A stretch of DNA of 64,000 bases from Candidatus Saccharimonadota bacterium (GTDB lineage: Bacteria; Patescibacteriota; Saccharimonadia; Saccharimonadales; Saccharimonadaceae). The DNA lies in NCBI GenBank assembly GCA_017464135.1, contig JAFUEB010000004.1:207049-271048 (forward strand), in the 5' to 3' direction. The position numbers were made by a program, and so were the translations under genes. The stretch's first letter is position 1, and each line of letters begins with the position of its first letter. This document shows positions 1,125-64,000 of the stretch, in pieces. Below the pieces are notes generated by a model that ran no database searches, was not told where the DNA came from, and saw nothing but the letters and a program-made list of their open reading frames with translations.

Positions 1125-2906
1125 ATGCATGACGATTCATTGAACCATGGTGGCAACAAAGTTAAAAACGCCAAGGTTACGTTTAAAGAATATTTGGTTT
1201 CGATTAAAAAGTATCGTTTCTCGATTATTATGTCGATTATTCTCGCGATTGCTTCAGCCATAACTGGGCTGTTTACGCCAAAAATTCTCGGCGACATGAC
1301 GACGATTGCCTACGAAACTTATCCGGACATCGATTTCATTACGATTGGACAGAAGGCAATCCTTGTAATTGTCTTGTTCCTAATTTCAGCAGCCCTAAAC
1401 TATGCGCAGGCCTTCATTCTCGGTATCGTCACGGCGAAATACACTCGCGATATGCGCGAGAAGATTATCGATAAAATTTCGAAACTCCCGATTTCGTATT
1501 TCGATCGTCATAAATTTGGTGACACGCTTTCGCGCATGACCAACGATATTGATGTCTTAACAACCTCGATGTCACAGGAAATTGCAGACTTCTCACTCAG
1601 CCTTACCACGCTTGTTGGCGTGATGGTAATTATGCTCGTGATTTCGGTGCCACTGTCGCTGATTTCCTTCATCATTGTGCCATTATCGGTAATTGTGGTG
1701 GGGAAGATTGCGAAATTCGCGCAGAAGTATTTCCGCGATCATCAGGCACTCCTTGGTGTACTTAACAGCAAAATTGAAGAGGATTATGCTGGCCAATCGG
1801 TGATTAAATCCAACTCGTACGAGCCATCCGCACTTGAAGATTTTAATGAAACGAATGAAAAGCTCGCGAAGGCCTCGATGCGCTCACAATTCTATTCATC
1901 GCTCTCTATGCCGGTTACACATATTTTCACGAATTTAAGCTATGTAGCGATCTGTATCGTGGGCGGCATCTTCGTGATTGAGCGCGTGATTTCGATTGGT
2001 GACATTCAAGCCTTTATTCAATACGTCACGAGATTCAACCGTCCGATTACGGAAATTGCTTCGTCAACTTCCACGATTCAGGCTTTGCTCGCGGCGTCTG
2101 AACGTATCTTTGAATTCTTGGATGAACCAGAAGAAGAACCGGACATTTCGCCGGCGCAGAAGATCGAGAAAGTGAAGGGCGAAGTCGAATTCCATGAAAT
2201 TAACTTTAGCTATCTCAAGGACACACCAGTGATTAAGAATTTCTCGGTCAAAGTGGAGCCGGGTATGAAGGTTGCCATCGTGGGGCCGACCGGCGCCGGT
2301 AAAACTACGATTATTAATCTACTCATGCGCTTTTATGAACCAGATTCAGGATACATTTCGATTGACGGCGTGCCAACTAGGGAAATGGAGCGCGCGGACG
2401 TGCGTGGATTATTCGGTATGGTACTCCAAGATACTTGGCTATTCTCGGGTACGGTGGAAGAGAACTTGCGCTACGGCAAGCAGGAAGCCACGCTCGAAGA
2501 AATCAAAGCAGCTGCGAAAGCTTCGAATATCCATCACGTGATTGAGTCATTGCCAAAGGGCTATAAGACGATGATTTCCGAAGATTCGGATAACATTTCG
2601 GCCGGCGAAAAGCAACTCATTACGATTGCACGCGCGATGGTCGCGAACCCGCCGATGATGATTTTAGACGAAGCGACTTCCAACGTGGATACACGTACCG
2701 AACAACTAATTCAAGATTCGTTTGAGAAACTGACGAATGGTCGCACATCGTTTGTGATTGCGCACCGCCTTTCAACGATTCGAAATTCCGATCTCATTCT
2801 CGTGATGCGCGATGGCAACATCGTCGAGCACGGCAACCACGAAGAACTCCTGAAGCAGGGTGGTTTCTACGCCGAGTTATACAACTCACAATTTGCTGAC
2901 AATTAA
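1125..2906 (+). CDS. ABC exporter ATP-binding/permease subunit (heterodimer partner)
   Basis: TMD plus NBD with GPTGAGKT, ISAGEKQ, ILDEATS, IAHRLST. Confidence 0.95.
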   Translation: MHDDSLNHGGNKVKNAKVTFKEYLVSIKKYRFSIIMSIILAIASAITGLFTPKILGDMTTIAYETYPDIDFITIGQKAILVIVLFLISAALNYAQAFILGIVTAKYTRDMREKIIDKISKLPISYFDRHKFGDTLSRMTNDIDVLTTSMSQEIADFSLSLTTLVGVMVIMLVISVPLSLISFIIVPLSVIVVGKIAKFAQKYFRDHQALLGVLNSKIEEDYAGQSVIKSNSYEPSALEDFNETNEKLAKASMRSQFYSSLSMPVTHIFTNLSYVAICIVGGIFVIERVISIGDIQAFIQYVTRFNRPITEIASSTSTIQALLAASERIFEFLDEPEEEPDISPAQKIEKVKGEVEFHEINFSYLKDTPVIKNFSVKVEPGMKVAIVGPTGAGKTTIINLLMRFYEPDSGYISIDGVPTREMERADVRGLFGMVLQDTWLFSGTVEENLRYGKQEATLEEIKAAAKASNIHHVIESLPKGYKTMISEDSDNISAGEKQLITIARAMVANPPMMILDEATSNVDTRTEQLIQDSFEKLTNGRTSFVIAHRLSTIRNSDLILVMRDGNIVEHGNHEELLKQGGFYAELYNSQFADN

Positions 2907-3491
2907 ATCAAAGACTTCTTCAATCGTACCGGAAGCATCAATAATTGGGATGTTTAAGGTTTTAGCAATTTGAAGATATCCGGCATTAACTTTTTGTTGG
3001 AACTCATCCGGCTTTGCTTCAAAAGTCTCGGTGGCTTTACCACGGTTTCCTTGGCGTTCTAACCGGACTTTGTCGGATACTTTTAGAATAAAACCGCGGT
3101 CTGGATTGCAGTAGTGATCCGGCATCATTTCTTTAGTTACTCGGATAATTTTGCTTCTTGAAACGCCCTCGCCGTAGCCTTGGTAGGCGAGCGTAGACCA
3201 CCAATTGCGAGCGGAAATCACAATCCCGCCACGCTTTAAGGTTGGCTCCGCAATTTTACGCCAGAGCTCGGAGCGGGCGGCGGTGAAAAGTGCTAGGTTC
3301 GTGATTGGCTCAAGCTTCCATTCTTTACCTTTAATCACGATGATATCGTGGATTTCGTGTGCCTGTGGCAAATCACCGTCTGGCTCATCCATCACCACGA
3401 CCTCTTTGCCCTGTTTTTCGAAATAGTCTTTTAAAAGTCTGGCCTGAGTCGATTTACCAGTACCATCTTGTCCTTCAATGACGATATACAT
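2886..3491 (-). CDS. tmk: Thymidylate kinase
   Basis: IVIEGQDGTGKSTQ P-loop, EP motif, LFTAAR, STLAYQG. Confidence 0.93.
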   Translation of the reverse strand: MYIVIEGQDGTGKSTQARLLKDYFEKQGKEVVVMDEPDGDLPQAHEIHDIIVIKGKEWKLEPITNLALFTAARSELWRKIAEPTLKRGGIVISARNWWSTLAYQGYGEGVSRSKIIRVTKEMMPDHYCNPDRGFILKVSDKVRLERQGNRGKATETFEAKPDEFQQKVNAGYLQIAKTLNIPIIDASGTIEEVFDLIVSKL

Positions 3492-4081
3492 TATTTTTCT
3501 CCTTCTAGATATTTTTGATAGCAGGCTGGGCAGATAGCGCGGTATTCAATTTTAGTTTTACCGTCATCAATTAAAACATCCGGGCCATCGACGACAAACT
3601 TACCGTTTAAAAATCTCGCATTACAAGTCGCTTTACGCCCACATTCACAAATCGTTTTAATCTCTTCAATATTATGAGCAATTTGGAGAAGCCTGGTTGC
3701 ACCTTCAAACCCACCATCGGTCAGGCGAAAATTCAGTCTAAGCCCGTAAGCCATCACTGGAATGTCGAGTTTATTCACGATCATCATTAACTCGTCGACT
3801 TGAGCCTTCGTTAAAAACTGGGCTTCGTCAACTAATACACAGTGGACGTTTTGGTATTTTTTTGAAATCTCTTCATAAATATTGGTTTTTTTATCGAAAC
3901 AAAAATCAGTCTCTCTTTCTGGACCAATCCTAGTTAAAAGTTTCGTGCCATTCTTGGTGTCGGTTTTTGGTTTAATTACGCAGACTTTATGTCCACGTTC
4001 TTCGTAATTAAATGCGACTTGGAGAAGTTGCATGGTTTTGCCGCACCCCATTGCTCCGTATCTGAAATATAATTTCGCCAT
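3491..4081 (-). CDS. tdk: Thymidine kinase
   Basis: LYFRYGAMGCGKT, VLVDEAQFL, YGL, Zn-binding ICECG...ICPAC. Confidence 0.95.
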   Translation of the reverse strand: MAKLYFRYGAMGCGKTMQLLQVAFNYEERGHKVCVIKPKTDTKNGTKLLTRIGPERETDFCFDKKTNIYEEISKKYQNVHCVLVDEAQFLTKAQVDELMMIVNKLDIPVMAYGLRLNFRLTDGGFEGATRLLQIAHNIEEIKTICECGRKATCNARFLNGKFVVDGPDVLIDDGKTKIEYRAICPACYQKYLEGEK

Positions 4082-4098
4082 GCTATAATTATAGCATG
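4079..4098. promoter_or_regulatory. Perfectly palindromic bidirectional extended -10 promoter for leaderless tdk and ung
   Basis: CATGCTATAATTATAGCATG is its own reverse complement; each strand reads TGcTATAAT-6nt-ATG. Confidence 0.75.
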
Positions 4099-4743
4099 CA
4101 TGAGAGTTGGAAATCTTTTCTAGATAGTGAGTTTAATAAACCGTATTTTAAAGAACTCTCGAAGTTTTTACACGATGAATACGAACATAAAACGATTTAT
4201 CCAAAAAAGAGCCTGGTCTTTTCGGCATTTACAACTGATTTGAATGAAGTTAAAGTTGTAATCTTGGGACAGGATCCATATCACACACCGGGTGCTGCAG
4301 AGGGACTGGCTTTTTCGGTGCCTTCAACTCAGCCAATCCCGCCATCATTAATTAATATCTATAAGGAAATCGATGCTGACATTGGACACCATAATAATCC
4401 GTCTGGAAGCCTCCGGAATTGGCAGAAACAAGGCGTATTATTATTAAACACGGTTCTAACCGTAGAAGCCCACAAGGCCGGTTCACACCGAGGCAAAGGT
4501 TGGGAAACTTTTACAACCGAAGTGATTAAATACCTAAACGAAACTCGTCCGCATCTAGTTTTTATTCTGTGGGGCAGAGACGCGAGAAATAAAAAGACAC
4601 TGATTGACAGCTCGAAACATTTGATTTTAGAGTCACCACATCCATCGCCGCTTTCCGCCTACGCCGGGTTCTTTGGCAATCATCATTTTTCAAAAACCAA
4701 TGAATTTCTCGAGAAGAACGGCTTAAAGCCAATTGAGTGGTAG
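4096..4743 (+). CDS. ung: Uracil-DNA glycosylase (family 1)
   Basis: VVILGQDPYH, GLAFSV, GVLLLN, HPSPLS. Confidence 0.97.
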   Translation: MHESWKSFLDSEFNKPYFKELSKFLHDEYEHKTIYPKKSLVFSAFTTDLNEVKVVILGQDPYHTPGAAEGLAFSVPSTQPIPPSLINIYKEIDADIGHHNNPSGSLRNWQKQGVLLLNTVLTVEAHKAGSHRGKGWETFTTEVIKYLNETRPHLVFILWGRDARNKKTLIDSSKHLILESPHPSPLSAYAGFFGNHHFSKTNEFLEKNGLKPIEW

Positions 4744-4800
4744 TTTTTAATTCGTCTTTAAGGTTCATTTTTTATACTTAAAATGTAAAAAAGGAAAAAT

Positions 4801-5115
4801 ATGGACGAAGAAACTATTAGTAAAAGTATTAAAAACAATTCTGAAACAACCGATAGACCGGAACTACCAACCGATTTAGAAGAAGTTGGCGATGGTGAGA
4901 ATGTAGGTACGATGAACCGTGGCAGAGAATTTCCAGGCGAAAGAATGACGTCTGTAGCTCAGCCACAGGCTGATCCGATGGCACCACTCATCTATTTTTC
5001 GGCCGGTGCCGGCAGTGCTCTACTTGCCTTTTTAGTTTTTTATCTTTGCTTAAGATTTTTGCCAAAAAGAGGCTGTGACTATCGTCAAGAAAAACTAGCA
5101 AAAAAGGATAATTAA
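4801..5115 (+). CDS. Hypothetical single-TM protein
   Basis: AAGGA SD upstream; C-terminal hydrophobic helix followed by basic tail. Confidence 0.6.
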   Translation: MDEETISKSIKNNSETTDRPELPTDLEEVGDGENVGTMNRGREFPGERMTSVAQPQADPMAPLIYFSAGAGSALLAFLVFYLCLRFLPKRGCDYRQEKLAKKDN

Positions 5116-5660
5116 AGCCAAGCCGCTAGTCTTTTATATTCAGCTGAATCTTTCGGATAGGAATCAAGGATATCTTCGATATAAGATTTACCGTTCGAAA
5201 GGTTCAGCGTTTTTACATGCGGCATTGAAACAAGCATACGAATGACCGCTTCGTCGGTTTCAACATTAGTCATGGAATGTTTCGGATCGGTTGAATGTGA
5301 ATGTACCCGTAGCTCGTTATAGACAAAACGGGTAATACCAGCCTGCAAACAATACTTTAGGCAGTTTTCGCAAGTGGCGACTCGATTATAAATGGTGCAG
5401 CCGTGTAAATCTTGTTTAGCAAAAAGCACTGCATTCATTTCGGAATGAATCGCAAAATAATACTTCATCGGGCGCTCACTTAATGTCATTTTAGCTTCGT
5501 TCGCACCCTGAATCATACCATTGTAGCCAAGCGAGACGACGCGCTTGTTTTGGTCGACGATGCAGCAGCCCATTTTCGACGAAGGGTCTTTGCTTTTAAG
5601 CGCAACCGTTTCGGCAATTTTCATGAAATACTCATCCCACTCGCGTTGTTTTTTATCCAT
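5112..5660 (-). CDS. dCMP deaminase family protein
   Basis: WDEYFMKIA, SKDP, GYNG, HSEMNA, CxxC (CENC). Confidence 0.9.
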   Translation of the reverse strand: MDKKQREWDEYFMKIAETVALKSKDPSSKMGCCIVDQNKRVVSLGYNGMIQGANEAKMTLSERPMKYYFAIHSEMNAVLFAKQDLHGCTIYNRVATCENCLKYCLQAGITRFVYNELRVHSHSTDPKHSMTNVETDEAVIRMLVSMPHVKTLNLSNGKSYIEDILDSYPKDSAEYKRLAAWL

Positions 5661-59230: not shown

Positions 59231-59321
59231 GCGCCTGTGGTGGAATTGGTAGACACGCTACCTTGAGGTGGTAGTGGCCACATTCACGGCTGTGCTAGTT
59301 CGAGTCTAGTCAGGCGCACCA
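59231..59321 (+). tRNA. tRNA-Leu(GAG)
   Basis: GCGCCTG/CAGGCGC acceptor stem, CTACC-tTGAGgt-GGTAG anticodon arm, long variable arm, GTTCGAGT, CCA. Confidence 0.95.
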
Positions 59322-59364
59322 AACCTAGTTCTGTTCTTAAGAGCCTGGTTAAAGACGTTTTCAA

Positions 59365-59398
59365 GAGGTTTCTTCCATCTGAAGGAGACCTCATTTTT
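59365..59398 (+). terminator. Intrinsic terminator after tRNA-Leu
   Basis: GAGGTTTCTTC/GAAGGAGACCTC stem plus T-run. Confidence 0.65.
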
Positions 59399-59499
59399 GT
59401 TGTTAATTTCTAGGTTCGTAACCAGTTTTCATACTAACTGGTCCTTTTGCCATGCTGACCTCGTTCCTTTTGAGGTTGCGCCATAAGGGCGGTATGGAG

Positions 59500-60216
59500 T
59501 TATGCTAATGGAGCGTAAATATGATTCTTTGGCTCTTCTTTGATTGATTCGTATGGGATATACTCGCCGTCAGCACGATCTTTCCATGGCTTTTGTGAAT
59601 GGGTAAAGTTTACAATTTCGGACGTTCGTTTATCTTTCCAGTACTTACAAATCTTATCGATGATACTTTTTTCATTATCACTTAAAGCTGAAGGATCTAC
59701 TTCTTCATTTGTGCTAGAAATAGAAATCATCTGGGCATAATCAAGAATATCAATGTTGATTTTGCCTTTATCGAACAACTTATCAGTTAGCACGAAGAAC
59801 TTTTCGGCTACTGGACCATAGTCTAATTTGTAGTATTTTGCGCCACTCATTGAATGATCGGTTTCGTAATAATTGGTGAAATCTACGAGATACAAAAGTT
59901 TTGCGAGCTTTGTTTTTGGAACTCCATTTTCAAAATGGTTTTTAAGAATATAGTAGTAAATCTGCTTTAATTTTTCTTCGGACTCTTTATTGGCTTCCTC
60001 GGATGGCAGAGTCAGATCAGAAAGAGAAACACCGAGTTTGCCGCAAATAATACCTAGTTCATCAATATTGAGCTTTCTTTTGCCGGACTCAATATTAATA
60101 TATGTAGCACGATTAATATCAAGAGCCTTTGCCATTTGCTCCTGTGTTAGATGTTTGGCGACACGAATATCACGTATTTTATTGACTATTGTATCGTTAT
60201 CTCCCATTTGACTCAC
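59500..60216 (-). CDS. XRE-HTH fused to DUF4065 (Panacea/SocA-like) domain
   Basis: IR..R....LTQEQMA..L...R.TY..IESG HTH; KTKLAKLLYLVDF, YGPV, TH.QKPW. Confidence 0.85.
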   Translation of the reverse strand: MSQMGDNDTIVNKIRDIRVAKHLTQEQMAKALDINRATYINIESGKRKLNIDELGIICGKLGVSLSDLTLPSEEANKESEEKLKQIYYYILKNHFENGVPKTKLAKLLYLVDFTNYYETDHSMSGAKYYKLDYGPVAEKFFVLTDKLFDKGKINIDILDYAQMISISSTNEEVDPSALSDNEKSIIDKICKYWKDKRTSEIVNFTHSQKPWKDRADGEYIPYESIKEEPKNHIYAPLA

Positions 60217-60354
60217 CTTTCGTTACCTCCATTATAAGTGTTGTGTTTGTTTTAGTCAATGCTTCGAGCATCATTTTGTCGCATATCACCACCTTATTAT
60301 AACGCTTATGTTAAAGAATTACAACATTTTTAATATATTTCGTGTGGTTTATTA

Positions 60355-60383
60355 TTGACATTATTCTGTTGGACTGATAGAAT
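60355..60383 (+). promoter_or_regulatory. Sigma70 promoter of DUF4417 operon
   Basis: TTGACA-17-TAGAAT with extended TG. Confidence 0.6.
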
Positions 60384-60622
60384 TAAAGTAGGTTGTGGAG
60401 GTAATCCCAACATAAAAAAGTACATTACACTAGCGTGGCTCCGACACATTAGTGTAGAGCCAACAAAAAATGCGTACTTATGTACCTGATCGGAAAATCT
60501 GACATAAGTACGCGAGAAGAGACGTATTACACATCTGTTCCTTTTTGATTGTAACATAGTTTCTTCTCTTACGCAAGCGTAAGGTCTTTAACAATATTAA
60601 CTTTAAAGATAAAGGAGACTCT

Positions 60623-61327
60623 ATGTCTGCTAAGTCAAAAAAGAGGCTAATCATTAATGATGGCTTCAATCCAGAACTCGCTGAAGGTGCCGAATTTGAG
60701 GGGCTTTTCCAATTTCCGGTTATCGAACCGACAAAAGAAATTGTCTACCCGAAATACCTGGTGCCGTTCTCCGAGCGCAACAAAATTACTAACCCTAAAG
60801 AAGCGTTCGTGGTCTTTTACGAACACGACGATAAGTTTGCCGATATTATTAGAAATCCCGATAAATATATCGACGACTTGAAACGCTTTGCCGGCGTAAT
60901 CTCGCCAGACAACTCACTCTATCGCGATATTCCTCTGGCCGTTCAGGTTGCTAATATCTATCGCAATAGACTGATTGGCTGCTTCTTACAAAGGAATGGT
61001 ATTCCGGTAATCGCTAACCTGCGTTGGGGTGATAGGCGTACCTATGGCAAAGAATTATTTGGCGAGGCGATTACATTCTCGTCCGTGCCAAAACATAGCG
61101 TCGTAGCTGTAGGATGTTATGGCTGCATTCGTGGTGAGGAGAATAAGAAGTACTTTATTGATGGCTTTCTTGCTATGCTGGGCGAGCTTGGGCCGGAAGC
61201 TGTGATTATCTATGGCAAACTACCGGATGATATCATCGAGCTACTTCGCATCAAGACCAAACTGATTATCTATAATGACTGGACTTCGGTTCGCCATGGA
61301 AAGGACTCGATCTATGGGCAGTGGTAG
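60623..61327 (+). CDS. DUF4417 family protein
   Basis: VFYEHDDKF, ISPDNSLYRDIP, NIYRNR, GIPVIANLRWGD, VAVGCYGC, VIIYG; AAGGAG SD. Confidence 0.8.
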   Translation: MSAKSKKRLIINDGFNPELAEGAEFEGLFQFPVIEPTKEIVYPKYLVPFSERNKITNPKEAFVVFYEHDDKFADIIRNPDKYIDDLKRFAGVISPDNSLYRDIPLAVQVANIYRNRLIGCFLQRNGIPVIANLRWGDRRTYGKELFGEAITFSSVPKHSVVAVGCYGCIRGEENKKYFIDGFLAMLGELGPEAVIIYGKLPDDIIELLRIKTKLIIYNDWTSVRHGKDSIYGQW

Positions 61328-61790
61328 AAGTGGCCTATACTCAAGCCTCGCTCAGTCCGTGAGCGGACGAGCTAGCATTAGTATCCCAGCTAGCACGATT
61401 ACGCACGCATCAATTGGCGAGTATCCAAATAATGCTAATAGATTAAAGTCTGGTGGCCATAGCCAAGCCAATATAGAAGAAATGGAACGCCGTGGCATTA
61501 AATATGTAATAAAGAAAACATTCCCAAACGGCGTGAGGCTAGGCTATGTACCGAACCACTACGAGAAGAGAAGGCAGGGCTTAGGCAAAAATCAAATTGG
61601 GCAACTTTGGTTCCCTAAAAGCTGGACCGAGGGCGATATTCGCAAGGCTGGCAAGGCGGTGCTAAAAGCTTACAAAGGCAGAATCAAAAACGGCTCTATG
61701 GTAACTGGATGGTATAATGGTGTTAAGGTCGGCATCATTGTGCGCAACCGTCAAATTAAAACAATTTTCCCGACCAAAGAACAGGAGTAA
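61314..61790 (+). CDS. Bacterial EndoU-like RNase toxin with short MGSGRSGLY leader
   Basis: THASIG...SGGHSQ, NGVR.G, WFPKSW..DI, G.YNGVKVG, TIFP; overlaps DUF4417 stop. Confidence 0.75.
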   Translation: MGSGRSGLYSSLAQSVSGRASISIPASTITHASIGEYPNNANRLKSGGHSQANIEEMERRGIKYVIKKTFPNGVRLGYVPNHYEKRRQGLGKNQIGQLWFPKSWTEGDIRKAGKAVLKAYKGRIKNGSMVTGWYNGVKVGIIVRNRQIKTIFPTKEQE

Positions 61791-61793
61791 TCC

Positions 61794-62162
61794 ATGGAAG
61801 AATTTAAGAAAAGAATCGAACCAATCTTAGAGGAACATCTAACACTTGATCGTAAGTGTGAAGAAGATCATTATTATGATTTTGATGCCTATGAGCGTGA
61901 TATAATCTGGGGGAAAGAGAAAGAAGCGCTTTCTGGCGTGAAGTTCGAAGACGTTATTGCATATCTCGATACTATAGATTCCGCCGAAAAGCTCGGGGCT
62001 TTAAGTGAGGGGTTCTACGATAATATAGCGAATGAAGTATATGGCAATAAGAGACAAGAGGTCCTCGAATGTTTTAAGAGAAACAATAAACGTTTGGGTG
62101 CTGATTTGGACGAGTTTTTAGAAGCAATGGAAACCCATAATTGGGACTACAAAGAAGAGTAG
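61794..62162 (+). CDS. Putative immunity protein of the EndoU toxin
   Basis: Acidic 122-aa helical ORF 3 nt after toxin stop, SD inside toxin 3' end. Confidence 0.6.
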   Translation: MEEFKKRIEPILEEHLTLDRKCEEDHYYDFDAYERDIIWGKEKEALSGVKFEDVIAYLDTIDSAEKLGALSEGFYDNIANEVYGNKRQEVLECFKRNNKRLGADLDEFLEAMETHNWDYKEE

Positions 62163-62366
62163 TCGGTTCCTGTATAATAGCTCCGTTATTAGCGGAGCTA
62201 TTTTTTTGTCGTTATTTTTCACGACATCCGCTATATGAAACTTTTGTTCTTTTGGTGGTAATTTCTGATCTTCTATAACCATATCGAGCAGACAATTGGC
62301 TAGTCTGGTCATTCGCGCTATATCTTCTTCGGTTGGTTGATATTCGTCTTTCTTTTGTTTAGCCAT
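62118..62366 (-). CDS. Small hypothetical protein
   Basis: AAGGA SD; protein-like first ~55 aa, tail overlaps immunity gene. Confidence 0.45.
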   Translation of the reverse strand: MAKQKKDEYQPTEEDIARMTRLANCLLDMVIEDQKLPPKEQKFHIADVVKNNDKKIAPLITELLYRNRLLFFVVPIMGFHCF

Positions 62367-62469
62367 TTATGTTCCTTTGTTATGTTATTATTCTAATTTT
62401 TTCAATGACATTGTAGGAATAAGTTATTCCTTTACATTGGTTCAATGTTCATTTCCTTGTGATCCCTAA

Positions 62470-62634
62470 TCAGAACGTAACATCTACTAAAACAGGGTAG
62501 TCCTTCTTCGGTATGACCTTTGTCTTAGGGTTGTATTCCGGATGCTCAAACATCCAATCAATCACATTATAGAGGCGGCGCGTTATCTCGTCTGCTGCAT
62601 CAATAAGTTCTCTGCAACGTTCGCCACAATAGCG
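62470..62634 (-). pseudogene. 5'-truncated gene fragment
   Basis: Open frame RYCGERCRELIDAADEITRRLYNVIDWMFEHPEYNPKTKVIPKKDYPVLVDVTF* preceded by an in-frame TAG. Confidence 0.4.
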
Positions 62635-62774
62635 CTAAGCCATATCTACATATGCATACATATAGCGGAAAGGATAGGCCGGAGCCCATGCCAATCACTA
62701 ATACAAAAGGTGATATAATCAATAAGAGCCTATACGAAAAGTATAAGGGATTCTTGAAAGGAATTAAGCTATGA
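62631..62774 (+). pseudogene. Orphan toxin C-terminal fragment (HxH-type)
   Basis: SAKPYLHMHTYSGKDRPEPMPIT...LYEKYKGFLKGIKL*, N-terminus missing, ATGA-coupled to next gene. Confidence 0.5.
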
Positions 62775-63049
62775 CAGAAGCTCAAGAAAAAGCGAAAAAA
62801 GAATATCTGGAAGTCTTAGGATATGGTGGCGAAATTGAATTCAATTACAATGGTTTCTTTTATCATATTGAACCAGATTACAAAAAAGAAGATACTTATA
62901 ATATTTGGAAGTTTGCCGACGAATACGAAGGTGGCGGAGAAATGATTGCGACCTGTTCGCCAGCCGTATCGATTCTAGAGGAGAAGGCTTTCGATGGCAA
63001 AACTATTCTCGAAATCGAGGATGATATGACAGGTTGCGCTTTGAGGTAA
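62771..63049 (+). CDS. Putative orphan immunity protein
   Basis: Acidic 92 aa, GGEIEFNYNG..YHI...FDGKTILEI. Confidence 0.65.
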   Translation: MTEAQEKAKKEYLEVLGYGGEIEFNYNGFFYHIEPDYKKEDTYNIWKFADEYEGGGEMIATCSPAVSILEEKAFDGKTILEIEDDMTGCALR

Positions 63050-63175
63050 CAAAATGACAGAATGTATCCTTCATTAATATAGGCAGTTGTATTAATAGCT
63101 CTGCGCACAACAGAGCTATTTTTGATGGTTCGTTTACGAGCTTTCTGCTTCAGATATTCTAGCATTATCTTTCAT
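63050..63175 (-). pseudogene. Possible decayed serine-recombinase N-terminus
   Basis: ATGA-coupled start; frameshifted MKDNARIS / KQKARKRTIKN / AYINEGY resembles YxRxS..Q...Y.DEG. Confidence 0.25.
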
Positions 63176-63303
63176 TTCAATTCCTTATTCTTTTTCTGGG
63201 CATGATAAAGGTCGATTATAATCCTCGCAAACTCATCCAACTCTCTCCGGGCTTGCTCTGGTAGCTCATAATAACTGATTGCTGATACTGTTTTCTTTTC
63301 CAT
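63172..63303 (-). CDS. Small protein (43 aa)
   Basis: AAGGAG SD; MEKKTVSAISYYELPEQARRELDEFARIIIDLYHAQKKNKELK. Confidence 0.5.
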   Translation of the reverse strand: MEKKTVSAISYYELPEQARRELDEFARIIIDLYHAQKKNKELK

Positions 63304-64000
63304 AGACACTCCTTATTATTAGTGTCTTCATTTTATAACATTGACATTGCAAGCTCTTAAGTGAGCTTTTACATTGACAATGGATCTACCTAGCTTAGTC
63401 TCCATATATGTATATATTACTAATAGTTCGTAATTGGTTTCGTTGCCATGGCTTTAATATATGAAATCTTGCAGTTCAGGGTTAAGTTTACTTTCGACCA
63501 GATCGAAGTCCGGCCGCCATGTTGGATTCACAATAACGTATTCAACTACCCCACAGAGAGGTTCGTAGAGATTTAGATACCGCGCACCATAGATAAAAAA
63601 GAATGCCTTAATGGCATTATTTTTTATCTATAATTTCGCCAGAGTAGACGAGAACGTAGTTCGTCCTTTCAAGGAGATGAGCAAAAAAGAAAAGTTTGCT
63701 TTTCTTTTTCCGAGTGACACAGAAAGGAGAGCGAGCGTAGCGAGCGATGTCTAGTCAGGCGCACCAAAATTAACTGGAATCTAAAAACCATAGCATAGCC
63801 ACTGATCCATGCTTCTCCACTGACTTTTGCATTGTCGAAGACCTATGTTTATTATCCTAGAATTATTTAGGCATTGGCAATACTTCATAGTTGCCGATAT
63901 ACCAAGTTTTCCATTTTCGCTTAGCAGGATAGTTTAATCTAATAGATTGGCCTGCACCGCCTTGATAGCCTACGACTACATCTGCTCCCACATCATTTCC

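Follow-up and report, generated by a model that had tools for sequence, protein, structure and literature searches.

DUF4417, a glycine-rich tag and exchangeable toxins: a candidate mobile polymorphic toxin module in a gut Saccharibacterium

We analyzed a stretch of 64,000 nucleotides (hereafter the window; positions 207,049 to 271,048 of contig JAFUEB010000004.1, assembly GCA_017464135.1) from a Candidatus Saccharibacteria metagenome-assembled genome (MAG) of animal-gut origin (0.67 Mb in 4 contigs; the assembly is 72% complete). Three adjacent genes at 60623-62162 encode a protein of the DUF4417 family, a small basic protein predicted to be an EndoU-type RNase, and an acidic protein. Sequence comparison supports reading this locus as a single instance of a mobile polymorphic toxin module of three genes, here called the cassette. 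By this comparison its toxin is modular, with a short, disordered and conserved Gly-rich tag in front of an exchangeable body, in this case a predicted EndoU RNase. The acidic protein encoded downstream is predicted to be the toxin-specific immunity protein, and DUF4417 is the constant third partner, found in two gene orders and as fusions. We lean, by a little, toward the reading that DUF4417 works through the tag, replaces a trafficking domain and probably links tagged effectors to DNA or capsid machinery for transfer.

Conservation of the trio and its tag

A DUF4417-alignment scan of species-representative genomes gave 265 relatives, the best 80 of which were analyzed; together with the window and a second copy in the host genome they make a set of 82 loci. 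The trio was present in 75 of them, arranged as DUF4417-toxin-immunity in 46 and as toxin-immunity-DUF4417 in 29, and the remaining seven loci were mostly cut by contig ends. The toxins share the N-terminal motif M-G-[STA]-[GT]-x-[ST]-x-x-[Y]-x-x-T-x-G. Across 41 toxins with non-alignable bodies, M1 of this tag was invariant and G2, S6 and Y9 were nearly invariant. A first-pass annotation of this DNA had stated that open reading frames (ORFs) starting with MG(G/S)xG often follow DUF4417 genes, and had proposed looking for shared leaders, variable toxins and cognate immunity genes at DUF4417 loci. The statement was accurate and the comparison gave a positive answer: MG[STAG][GTS]x[SGT] occurred at 71 of 1,477 candidate starts adjoining DUF4417 (4.8%) vs. 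3 of 5,316 elsewhere in the same loci (0.06%), an enrichment of ∼80-fold, and the conserved trio was found with ten classes of toxin.

The window alone presents three small genes in a low-GC islet, possibly unrelated cargo, and could be read as a chance neighborhood of an ordinary two-gene toxin-antitoxin (TA) pair and an unrelated prophage-derived gene. We regard this as highly improbable. It is contradicted by the recurrence of the trio in several phyla and in two orders, by the concentration of the tag motif beside DUF4417, by DUF4417-effector fusions (described below) and by the second cassette in the same genome. That second cassette shows the same 14-nt overlap geometry as the window. 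Its 126-aa basic protein has a degenerate tag, MASVKGYSNLH, and matched no Pfam family; the Atlas put it near polymorphic-toxin C-terminal domains, which we take as a lead only.

Clustering of the toxin parts past residue 30 gave the ten BLAST classes of body behind the one tag. Those named by Pfam were EndoU (16 downstream and 24 upstream copies), Ntox50, YwqJ deaminase and Ntox24, with Tox-REase-3 in a prophage, and all of these domains have been catalogued for polymorphic toxins (PMC3482391). In 64 loci the immunity classes mapped one to one on the toxin classes, whatever the tag variant or gene order, and because of this match we read the gene next to the toxin as its cognate immunity gene. 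The first-pass annotation had called the last ORF of the window acidic and immunity-like. This description held: the protein has a net charge of -16 and falls into a BLAST class of 42 that accompanies all 42 EndoU toxins in both gene orders. Basic toxins paired with acidic immunity proteins are the general pattern of these loci. One immunity partner belongs to the known Imm7 family; Pfam searches with nine further immunity classes gave no family. Three tandem immunity paralogues were present in the Gardnerella, Lactobacillus iners and Arcanobacterium loci, an arrangement that is typical of toxins received from other cells.

The toxin-first cassettes of these vaginal taxa, which belong to two phyla (L010, L013, L019 and L021), are nearly identical. 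Their DUF4417 terminal branches measured 0.02-0.05, which indicates recent horizontal transfer.

Two marks of polymorphic toxins were found in these loci, namely a variable toxin behind a conserved N-terminus and a cognate immunity protein that is swapped together with the toxin. The third, a trafficking or secretion domain (type II, V, VI or VII secretion, PVC, PrsW or MuF), was absent from the Pfam matches of the three proteins. The cassette also differs from a type II TA system, in which two genes form the unit and the antitoxin binds DNA and autoregulates: no DNA-binding domain was found in the immunity protein, the genes form a conserved trio, and regulation seemingly comes from separate helix-turn-helix (HTH) genes and an antisense RNA.

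We compared the tags with a maximum-likelihood tree of 75 DUF4417 proteins. Tag variants followed well-supported DUF4417 clades (MGAGQSDLY, MGSGISTKY, MGTTKSGRY, and MGSGxSGxY in Saccharibacteria). Toxin classes c0, c1, c2 and c3 each occurred in distant DUF4417 clades with different tags, and one DUF4417 clade combined two toxin classes with a single tag. On this tree, the tag variant tracks the DUF4417 clade, not the toxin. The toxin-first EndoU lineage formed a single clade of 27 loci (support 100/99; e.g., L020, L036 and L062), in which Tyr9 of the tag is replaced by Val, Thr or Leu. DUF4417 of the same clade carries D13E, N111D/S/G and Q123S at otherwise near-invariant positions, with an invariant Asp/Arg core. 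D13, N111 and Q123 may be tag-contact residues, a mere hint that comes from one evolutionary event.

A comparison with locus L004 placed the break between constant and variable parts just behind the tag. Amino acid identity was 90% for DUF4417, 72% for the whole toxin and 45% for the immunity protein, while 23 of the first 24 toxin residues were identical. At the nucleotide level, identity was 97-98% in 60690-60929 and 92% in 60930-60989, both within the 5' half of the DUF4417 gene; it was 72-87% over the rest of that gene and the tag, and 50-77% in the toxin and immunity genes. The two cassettes form a recombination mosaic with a constant head and a variable tail.

The three genes of the window are tightly packed, as the first-pass annotation had reported, and the ORFs are as it described them. 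The toxin start overlaps the DUF4417 stop by 14 nt, the immunity start lies 4 nt past the toxin stop, and a Shine-Dalgarno-like AGGAG or AAGGA is found 7-10 nt 5' of each of the three starts. DUF4417 and the toxin are predicted to be translationally coupled via the 14-nt overlap; overlaps of 0-31 nt between these two genes are common among the loci. The dN/dS ratios against the closest relatives were 0.10 (DUF4417), 0.08 (toxin) and 0.19 (immunity), which indicates three real genes under selection. The DUF4417 protein has all family-invariant residues (D69, D96, R134 and G167) as well as the near-invariant D137. The earlier statement that no known delivery domain is present was upheld by a Pfam scan of the three proteins, which found no further domain, including RHS, LXG and MuF, and neither a signal peptide, repeats nor a pre-toxin domain. 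PADLOC-DB 2.0 gave no match for DUF4417, toxin or immunity protein; only generic HTH models matched the neighboring regulator. The immunity protein had no Pfam match, and its Atlas look-up returned no usable match.

The toxin ORF (61314-61790) encodes 158 aa from MGSGRSGLY, with a net charge of +18 and a match to PF14436 (E 4e-12, 46.7-47 bits vs. a cut-off of 25.3), in agreement with the basic EndoU-like protein described earlier. H31, H49, K68 and T150 were invariant across 20 relatives, and the published EndoU active-site pattern is H, H, [SNT], [SNT] (Zhang et al. 2012, PMC3482391). The best Foldseek matches were XendoU, Nsp15 and the CdiA-CT EndoU domain 5hkq, all of them weak (E 0.035-0.2, TM 0.4-0.48); PDB sequence searches with the toxin and with the EndoU profile gave nothing meaningful. 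Two details of the earlier description need correction. The leader had been put at ∼30 aa; the tag spans 14-19 residues, since the toxin model has pLDDT <50 for residues 1-19 and >90 beyond, and the EndoU domain with the invariant His31 starts directly after it. The Gln that stands for Lys before FP had been singled out, and that position is variable in this EndoU subfamily and carries no signal.

Two other gene models were rejected. A toxin start at 61275 lacks a Shine-Dalgarno sequence, and every relative begins at the MG motif. A programmed frameshift giving a DUF4417-toxin fusion was ruled out by start-to-stop offsets of -69 to +8 nt in 43 of 44 loci (the exception is L074, +185 nt), in differing frames, and by the lack of a slippery site in the window.

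DUF4417 fold and phage versions

The AlphaFold model of the window's DUF4417 protein (pLDDT 87, pTM 0.86) is a TIM barrel. In an exhaustive structural search (VIA), the best match was archaeosine tRNA-guanine transglycosylase (TGT; 1iq8, Z 10.7, 172 residues aligned, rmsd 3.2), followed by DpdA (7ui4, Z 10.3) and QTRT2 (6fv5, Z 10.2). The bacterial TGT 3unt scored Z 8.5 and unrelated TIM barrels 7-8.6; no other search set the TGT family apart from the remaining barrels. D69 and D96 are invariant and D137 is near-invariant in DUF4417, and loci of either gene order keep invariant Asp, Arg and Gln residues. TGT and DpdA have three invariant Asp (PMC10164549). Judged by the model, DUF4417 is a transglycosylase-like barrel by fold, which we set apart from membership in the TGT superfamily. 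Such membership was considered and is not claimed, as the match is one of fold only.

DUF4417 is also widespread in phages, with 492 phage records matching the family. In mycobacteriophage Gladiator, gp1 is DUF4417 and gp2 starts with MGGRGG and ends in an HExxH peptidase; gp1 lies at the left genome end, and no terminase gene was seen within the 3.5 kb shown. Christensenellales phage NatCom_6392 has DUF4417 followed by a protein that starts with MGTRGSS and has, by eye, an ADP-ribosyltransferase (ART)-like body. Phage versions of DUF4417 are found fused to a ParB N-terminal domain; in Streptococcus phage SpGS-1 such a ParB-DUF4417 fusion is followed by a gene with a GGGRG run and stands two genes before the terminase large subunit. 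The prophage locus L099 encodes an SPP1-type portal, DUF4417, a tagged Tox-REase-3 and Imm7. It was reported previously that muf genes lie directly downstream of portal genes (PMC5576092), the same slot as that of DUF4417 in L099.

In L095, a terminase large subunit gene is followed by one for a 322-aa protein (1135-2103, - strand) in which DUF4417 continues in frame through a Gly run into an effector; an immunity-like ORF comes next. A similar DUF4417-effector fusion of 341 aa is encoded in L104 (1327-2352, + strand). Both have an FFG[GS]GGG joint, C-terminal domains without a Pfam family, and paralogous immunity-like ORFs of ∼200 aa behind them. The joint indicates that the Gly-rich tag is also usable as an internal linker. 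In the ESM Atlas, 86 proteins cluster together with the domain pair DUF4417+Ribonuclease (PF00545). A word-based search for longer proteins in which a relative of the window's DUF4417 is fused to something else found none, which is weak evidence.

One IMG/VR contig (L123) carries Fic, DUF4417, a tagged EndoU and an immunity gene (2447-5470) between a ParB-N4/N6-methylase gene and the genes for the terminase small and large subunits. This slot is the one that ParB-DUF4417 fusions occupy in other phages.

The structural matches raise the alternative that DUF4417 modifies or exchanges bases in DNA or RNA independently of the tag, as in DpdA-like modification, repair or anti-restriction, with the toxin-immunity pair as a selfish stabilizing passenger. 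TGT, DpdA and QTRT2 are its nearest structures, some DUF4417 records are annotated as 'nuclease', and phage DUF4417 occupies the slot of ParB-methyltransferases before the terminase. DpdA depends on the ParB-like ATPase DpdB (PMC10164549), and the ParB_N fusions in phages mirror this DpdB/DpdA partnership; the three conserved Asp in a TIM barrel are a further likeness. The likeness ends at the sequence level, where no profile similarity to DpdA or TGT was found. At 234 aa DUF4417 is half their size and lacks their Zn/insertion subdomain; its partners are tagged proteins, not a base, and neither preQ0 nor other 7-deazaguanine synthesis genes were found among the surveyed upstream neighbors of the 80 loci. 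The alternative also leaves unexplained why one tag is shared by unrelated toxins, why the tag tracks DUF4417 clades and why DUF4417 is fused in frame to effectors. We consider it rather improbable.

Islet boundaries and predicted control elements

A 4.4-kb islet (59324-63768) with att-like ends and a GC content below that of the flanks contains the cassette (Table 1). The 20-mer repeat at these ends occurs in exactly two copies genome-wide. No integrase is encoded inside, because the islet contains no ORF >240 aa.

The gene for an HTH-Panacea protein is divergent from the cassette and has a promoter-like site on the minus strand at 60259-60231. Locus L005 encodes an 80% identical homologue that is likewise divergent and at the same place. 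In L004, L006 and the host's second cassette, Xre and M78 ImmA genes stand in its place. The regulator module of these cassettes seems to be exchangeable, and the HTH-Panacea protein is, on its domain content, likely a repressor or antitoxin-type regulator of the islet.

The promoter-like site of the operon implies a 5' leader of ∼230 nt. A candidate cis-antisense small RNA lies opposite this leader. It has its own -35 (60576-60571) and -10 (60553-60548) elements, spaced by 17 nt. Its sequence contains two hairpins as well as a terminator formed by a stem at 60513-60472 and a U-run at 60470-60465. The predicted fold has -30.4 kcal/mol (z -5.0 vs. shuffled sequence). The region is kept in L004, L005 and L006 despite differing upstream genes, and the consensus structure has 21 pairs, five of them with compensatory changes; some G-U pairs work on the minus strand only. 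The candidate matched no Rfam family.

Table 1. Features of the islet and the second cassette of the host genome (coordinates of the window unless a contig is named)
Feature	Position	Strand	Remarks
tRNA-Leu(GAG)	59231..59321	+	ARAGORN; Rfam tRNA 51.5 bits
Left 20-bp direct repeat	59304-59323		Contains last 18 nt of tRNA-Leu, ends 2 nt beyond the tRNA
HTH_3 + SocA/Panacea-domain protein	59500..60216	-	238 aa; Pfam HTH_3 3e-13, SocA_Panacea 1e-19
Promoter-like site for DUF4417 operon	60355..60383	+	TTGACA-17-TAGAAT, extended TG; consensus match 11/12
Candidate cis-antisense small RNA	60465..60541	-	∼77 nt; opposite operon 5' leader; predicted from sequence
DUF4417 gene	60623..61327	+	234 aa; PF14386 E 6e-45, 153.4 bits vs. 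gathering cut-off 28.9
Toxin tag (leader)	61314..61370	+	Toxin residues 1-19, MGSGRSGLY start, Gly/Ser-rich, predicted disordered
EndoU-type RNase toxin domain + stop codon	61371..61790	+	Residues 20-158; Pfam EndoU_bacteria
Predicted cognate immunity gene	61794..62162	+	122 aa, net charge -16; class of 42 accompanying EndoU toxins
Intrinsic terminator of operon	62176..62202	+	12-bp stem, then T-run
Right 20-bp direct repeat, att-like	63749..63768	+	Perfect copy of 59304-59323; closes islet
Second cassette of host genome (L002)	G000 contig C1:7129-10647		Xre, ImmA (M78), DUF4417 (227 aa), 126-aa basic protein, 83-aa acidic ORF

Downstream of the cassette, a 92-aa acidic ORF (62771-63049, + strand) is followed by a hairpin (63093-63123) that is 74% identical to the cassette terminator. 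This ORF may be an orphan immunity gene, to judge from its sequence. Its likeness to the class-3 immunity protein of L008 (E 0.002 over 13 residues) was too weak to call. In a bovine-gut contig, a 283-nt joint that goes back from 63053 to 62771 corresponds to a tandem duplication of the ORF. Past the right repeat lie two low-GC ORFs on the minus strand, one of 520 aa (63863-64000, on to C2:272473) and one of 300 aa (C2:272467-273369); the pair may be a second acquired segment.

We also examined how widely the cassette and the family occur. Gut metagenome contigs from four studies cover the cassette, one of them a 2.2-kb bovine-gut contig that covers 60541-62353 at ∼94% identity; these contigs bear on presence and contiguity only. 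The DUF4417 profile matched 4,007 representative clusters among 1.84 billion proteins (2,574 at 1e-10 or better), and the family was present in 47 of 401 Lachnospirales species sampled. In the phylum to which the window belongs, none of the 400 further genomes sampled had it; in the tree, a few gut Saccharibacteria MAGs grouped with the window as a separate DUF4417 clade. The host belongs to the episymbiotic Saccharibacteria, with a reduced genome of ∼0.7 Mb. Two copies in a genome of this size, yet none in the 400 others, show that the cassette was acquired recently by horizontal transfer and has been retained under purifying selection.

Handling of the tag and relation to known systems

The first-pass annotation had proposed a polymorphic toxin or anti-phage class in which DUF4417 recognizes or modifies the leader. 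The anti-phage option is neither favored nor disfavored by the data. The toxin class built around DUF4417 and the leader is supported, given the shared tag, the swapped toxins, the cognate immunity and the absence of a known delivery domain. Action of DUF4417 on the leader is consistent with three points: the tag variant tracks the DUF4417 clade, fusions exist, and the genes are translationally coupled. The TGT-like fold, the ParB fusions and the position beside portal and terminase genes argue for a DNA- or capsid-linked role rather than that of a simple protein-modifying enzyme.

In the mechanism that we propose, DUF4417 would bind, process or couple the tag and would thus handle any toxin attached to it. 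It would fill the role that the N-terminal trafficking domain has in classical toxins and the head protein has in MuF toxins. The handling step would probably involve nucleic acid or the DNA-packaging machinery, so that tagged effectors are loaded for transfer to another cell; this part is suggested by the nearest structures, which exchange tRNA or DNA bases, by the phage ParB fusions and by the portal and terminase neighbors. The immunity protein would shield the producer from its own toxin. The operon would be expressed from the promoter at 60355 and damped by the cis-antisense small RNA, and probably also by the divergent HTH-Panacea protein. In a more specific form, DUF4417 would be a transglycosylase-fold enzyme that handles the Gly tag chemically, e.g., by coupling the protein to packaged or transferred DNA or by processing the tag, and the effectors would travel with DNA or capsid into another cell. 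This chemical version strikes us as a long shot.

Several observations weigh against a role of DUF4417 through the tag and the packaging machinery. Contact between DUF4417 and the tag is something we infer from sequence; a single complex prediction of DUF4417 with toxin residues 1-40 gave a median score of 0.11 vs. a mark of 0.32, which we count neither for nor against such contact. Tyr9 is not universally required, since it is absent in the toxin-first clade, and the co-variation of tag and DUF4417 may be plain linkage of adjacent DNA with breakpoints after the tag. The relation to transglycosylases has its own negatives: Foldseek of DUF4417 against the PDB gave nothing below 1e-3, the DUF4417 profile had no match to PDB sequences, hhalign against a TGT alignment from Saccharibacteria genomes gave a probability of 0.5%, and the protein ends with the barrel, where TGT and DpdA add their Zn/insertion subdomain. 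As to the phage link, virion genes are missing from the surroundings of the window islet and of most of the 80 bacterial loci, and an IMG/VR scan with window-subfamily patterns gave 4 loci only; this subfamily is mostly chromosomal. The 80 loci are the best matches to the window's DUF4417 subfamily and are no random sample of the representative DUF4417 clusters.

The gene neighborhoods point in another direction as well. Upstream of DUF4417, Xre HTH, M78 ImmA, Fic, ABC-3C and AbiEii-type genes recur across the loci, a setting that also fits defense or addiction modules. The cassette could instead act within the cell as an inducible module for suicide or addiction (abortive infection [Abi] or tripartite TA), in which the toxin stays in the cell, the immunity protein is an antitoxin, and DUF4417 is a sensor or activator that frees or activates the tagged toxin on a phage or stress signal. 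Xre/ImmA or HTH-Panacea regulators together with the antisense RNA would keep the module silent until that signal. The neighbors named above, with AbiEii-type AAA_21 and Schlafen/AlbA_2 among them, are typical of defense or TA islands; the Panacea-domain regulator that adjoins the cassette here is antitoxin-like, the arrangement of the antisense RNA is reminiscent of type I TA control, and the islet has neither a secretion signal nor virion genes. The placement of the viral-contig cassette as cargo between ParB-methylase and terminase genes is like that of defense 'morons'. However, none of the three proteins is covered by a PADLOC model. Tandem arrays of additional immunity paralogues and toxin swapping behind a fixed N-terminus are hallmarks of intercellular toxins, not of Abi or TA modules; the domains of the toxins are ones listed for polymorphic toxins, and Imm7 is among the immunity proteins. 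Moreover, the phage versions in the head and packaging module carry non-suicidal effectors (peptidase, ART-like) without immunity genes. We rate the intracellular module as possible, though doubtful, and continue with the view that tagged effectors are handled by DUF4417 for transfer.

MuF toxins (PMC5576092; PMC3482391) are the closest described analogue of the cassette, an analogy that lies in logic and not in fold. They combine a conserved protein of the phage head module with interchangeable toxins (EndoU, Ntox50, Ntox24, deaminases, ART) and a small immunity ORF next to them, and are common in gut Firmicutes, as are DUF4417 cassettes. However, a Pfam scan of DUF4417 and toxin found no MuF domain (PF04233/PF06152 or MuF3/4) in the cassette, and DUF4417 has an unrelated TIM-barrel fold. 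The DUF4417-linked toxin is in most cases a small protein of its own, with the tag of 14-19 residues as the sole connection to its partner. Most DUF4417 cassettes, the present one included, are chromosomal islets without virion genes, controlled by Xre/ImmA-type or HTH-Panacea regulators. The cassette of the window does not lie beside portal or terminase genes, as muf genes do; the relatives L099 (portal) and L095 (TerL) do.

Classical polymorphic toxins (CdiA-CT/CdiI, Rhs, LXG, MafB; PMC3482391) share with the cassette a constant N-terminus, a variable toxin, paired swapping with the downstream immunity gene, extra paralogues and the same toxin families. Unlike in these systems, the constant part of the cassette consists of no more than a short tag and a second protein encoded apart from it. 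None of the classical routes named in the parts of PMC3482391 that we consulted (type II, V, VI and VII secretion, PVC, PrsW-dependent and MuF) is encoded or implied in the cassette. The nearest relatives of the toxin body are CdiA-CT(EndoU)/CdiI of E. coli STEC_O31 (5hkq) and XendoU/Nsp15, with which it would share, on sequence grounds, an EndoU-type, metal-independent RNase body of PF14436 with two invariant His and Lys/Thr. In contrast to CdiA-CT, the window toxin is free-standing at 158 aa without a CdiA stalk, and no known family was found to resemble its immunity protein.

Two further systems resemble single aspects of the cassette. In the internal proteins IPI-III of phage T4, a short N-terminal peptide addresses diverse cargo for packaging, as the tag might. 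The T4 capsid-targeting tags are cleaved by the prohead protease, and to our knowledge they have no dedicated enzyme-like partner gene. Colicin operons are stress-induced three-gene units of toxin, immunity and helper, in which the third gene encodes a small lysis lipoprotein and not a TIM barrel.

A literature search on DUF4417/PF14386 gave no paper linking the family to toxins, and the parts of Zhang et al. 2012 (PMC3482391) and Jamet et al. 2017 (PMC5576092) that we consulted list no DUF4417-type route. The new elements are the DUF4417-tag organization of the toxin-immunity trio, the toxin-first gene order and its missing Tyr9, the one-to-one map of toxin and immunity classes, the profile comparison that found no relation to TGT, the att-bounded islet, and the occurrence in Saccharibacteria.

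Polymorphic toxins shape competition in dense microbial communities, and the route of toxin trafficking is what defines each known class. In the cassette, the place of a secretion domain as the constant element is taken by a tag of 14-19 residues together with an enzyme-like partner protein, itself widespread in the packaging modules of phages, and the cassette is kept in an organism with very little spare coding capacity. If DUF4417 handles the tag, a large domain of unknown function would gain a role, the tag would become a simple sequence rule for finding toxins, phage effectors and immunity proteins, and a portable tag/partner pair for protein loading may exist. If the chemical handling of the tag were true, it would be a new protein-delivery chemistry, common to hundreds of phages and to virion-less chromosomal toxin cassettes.

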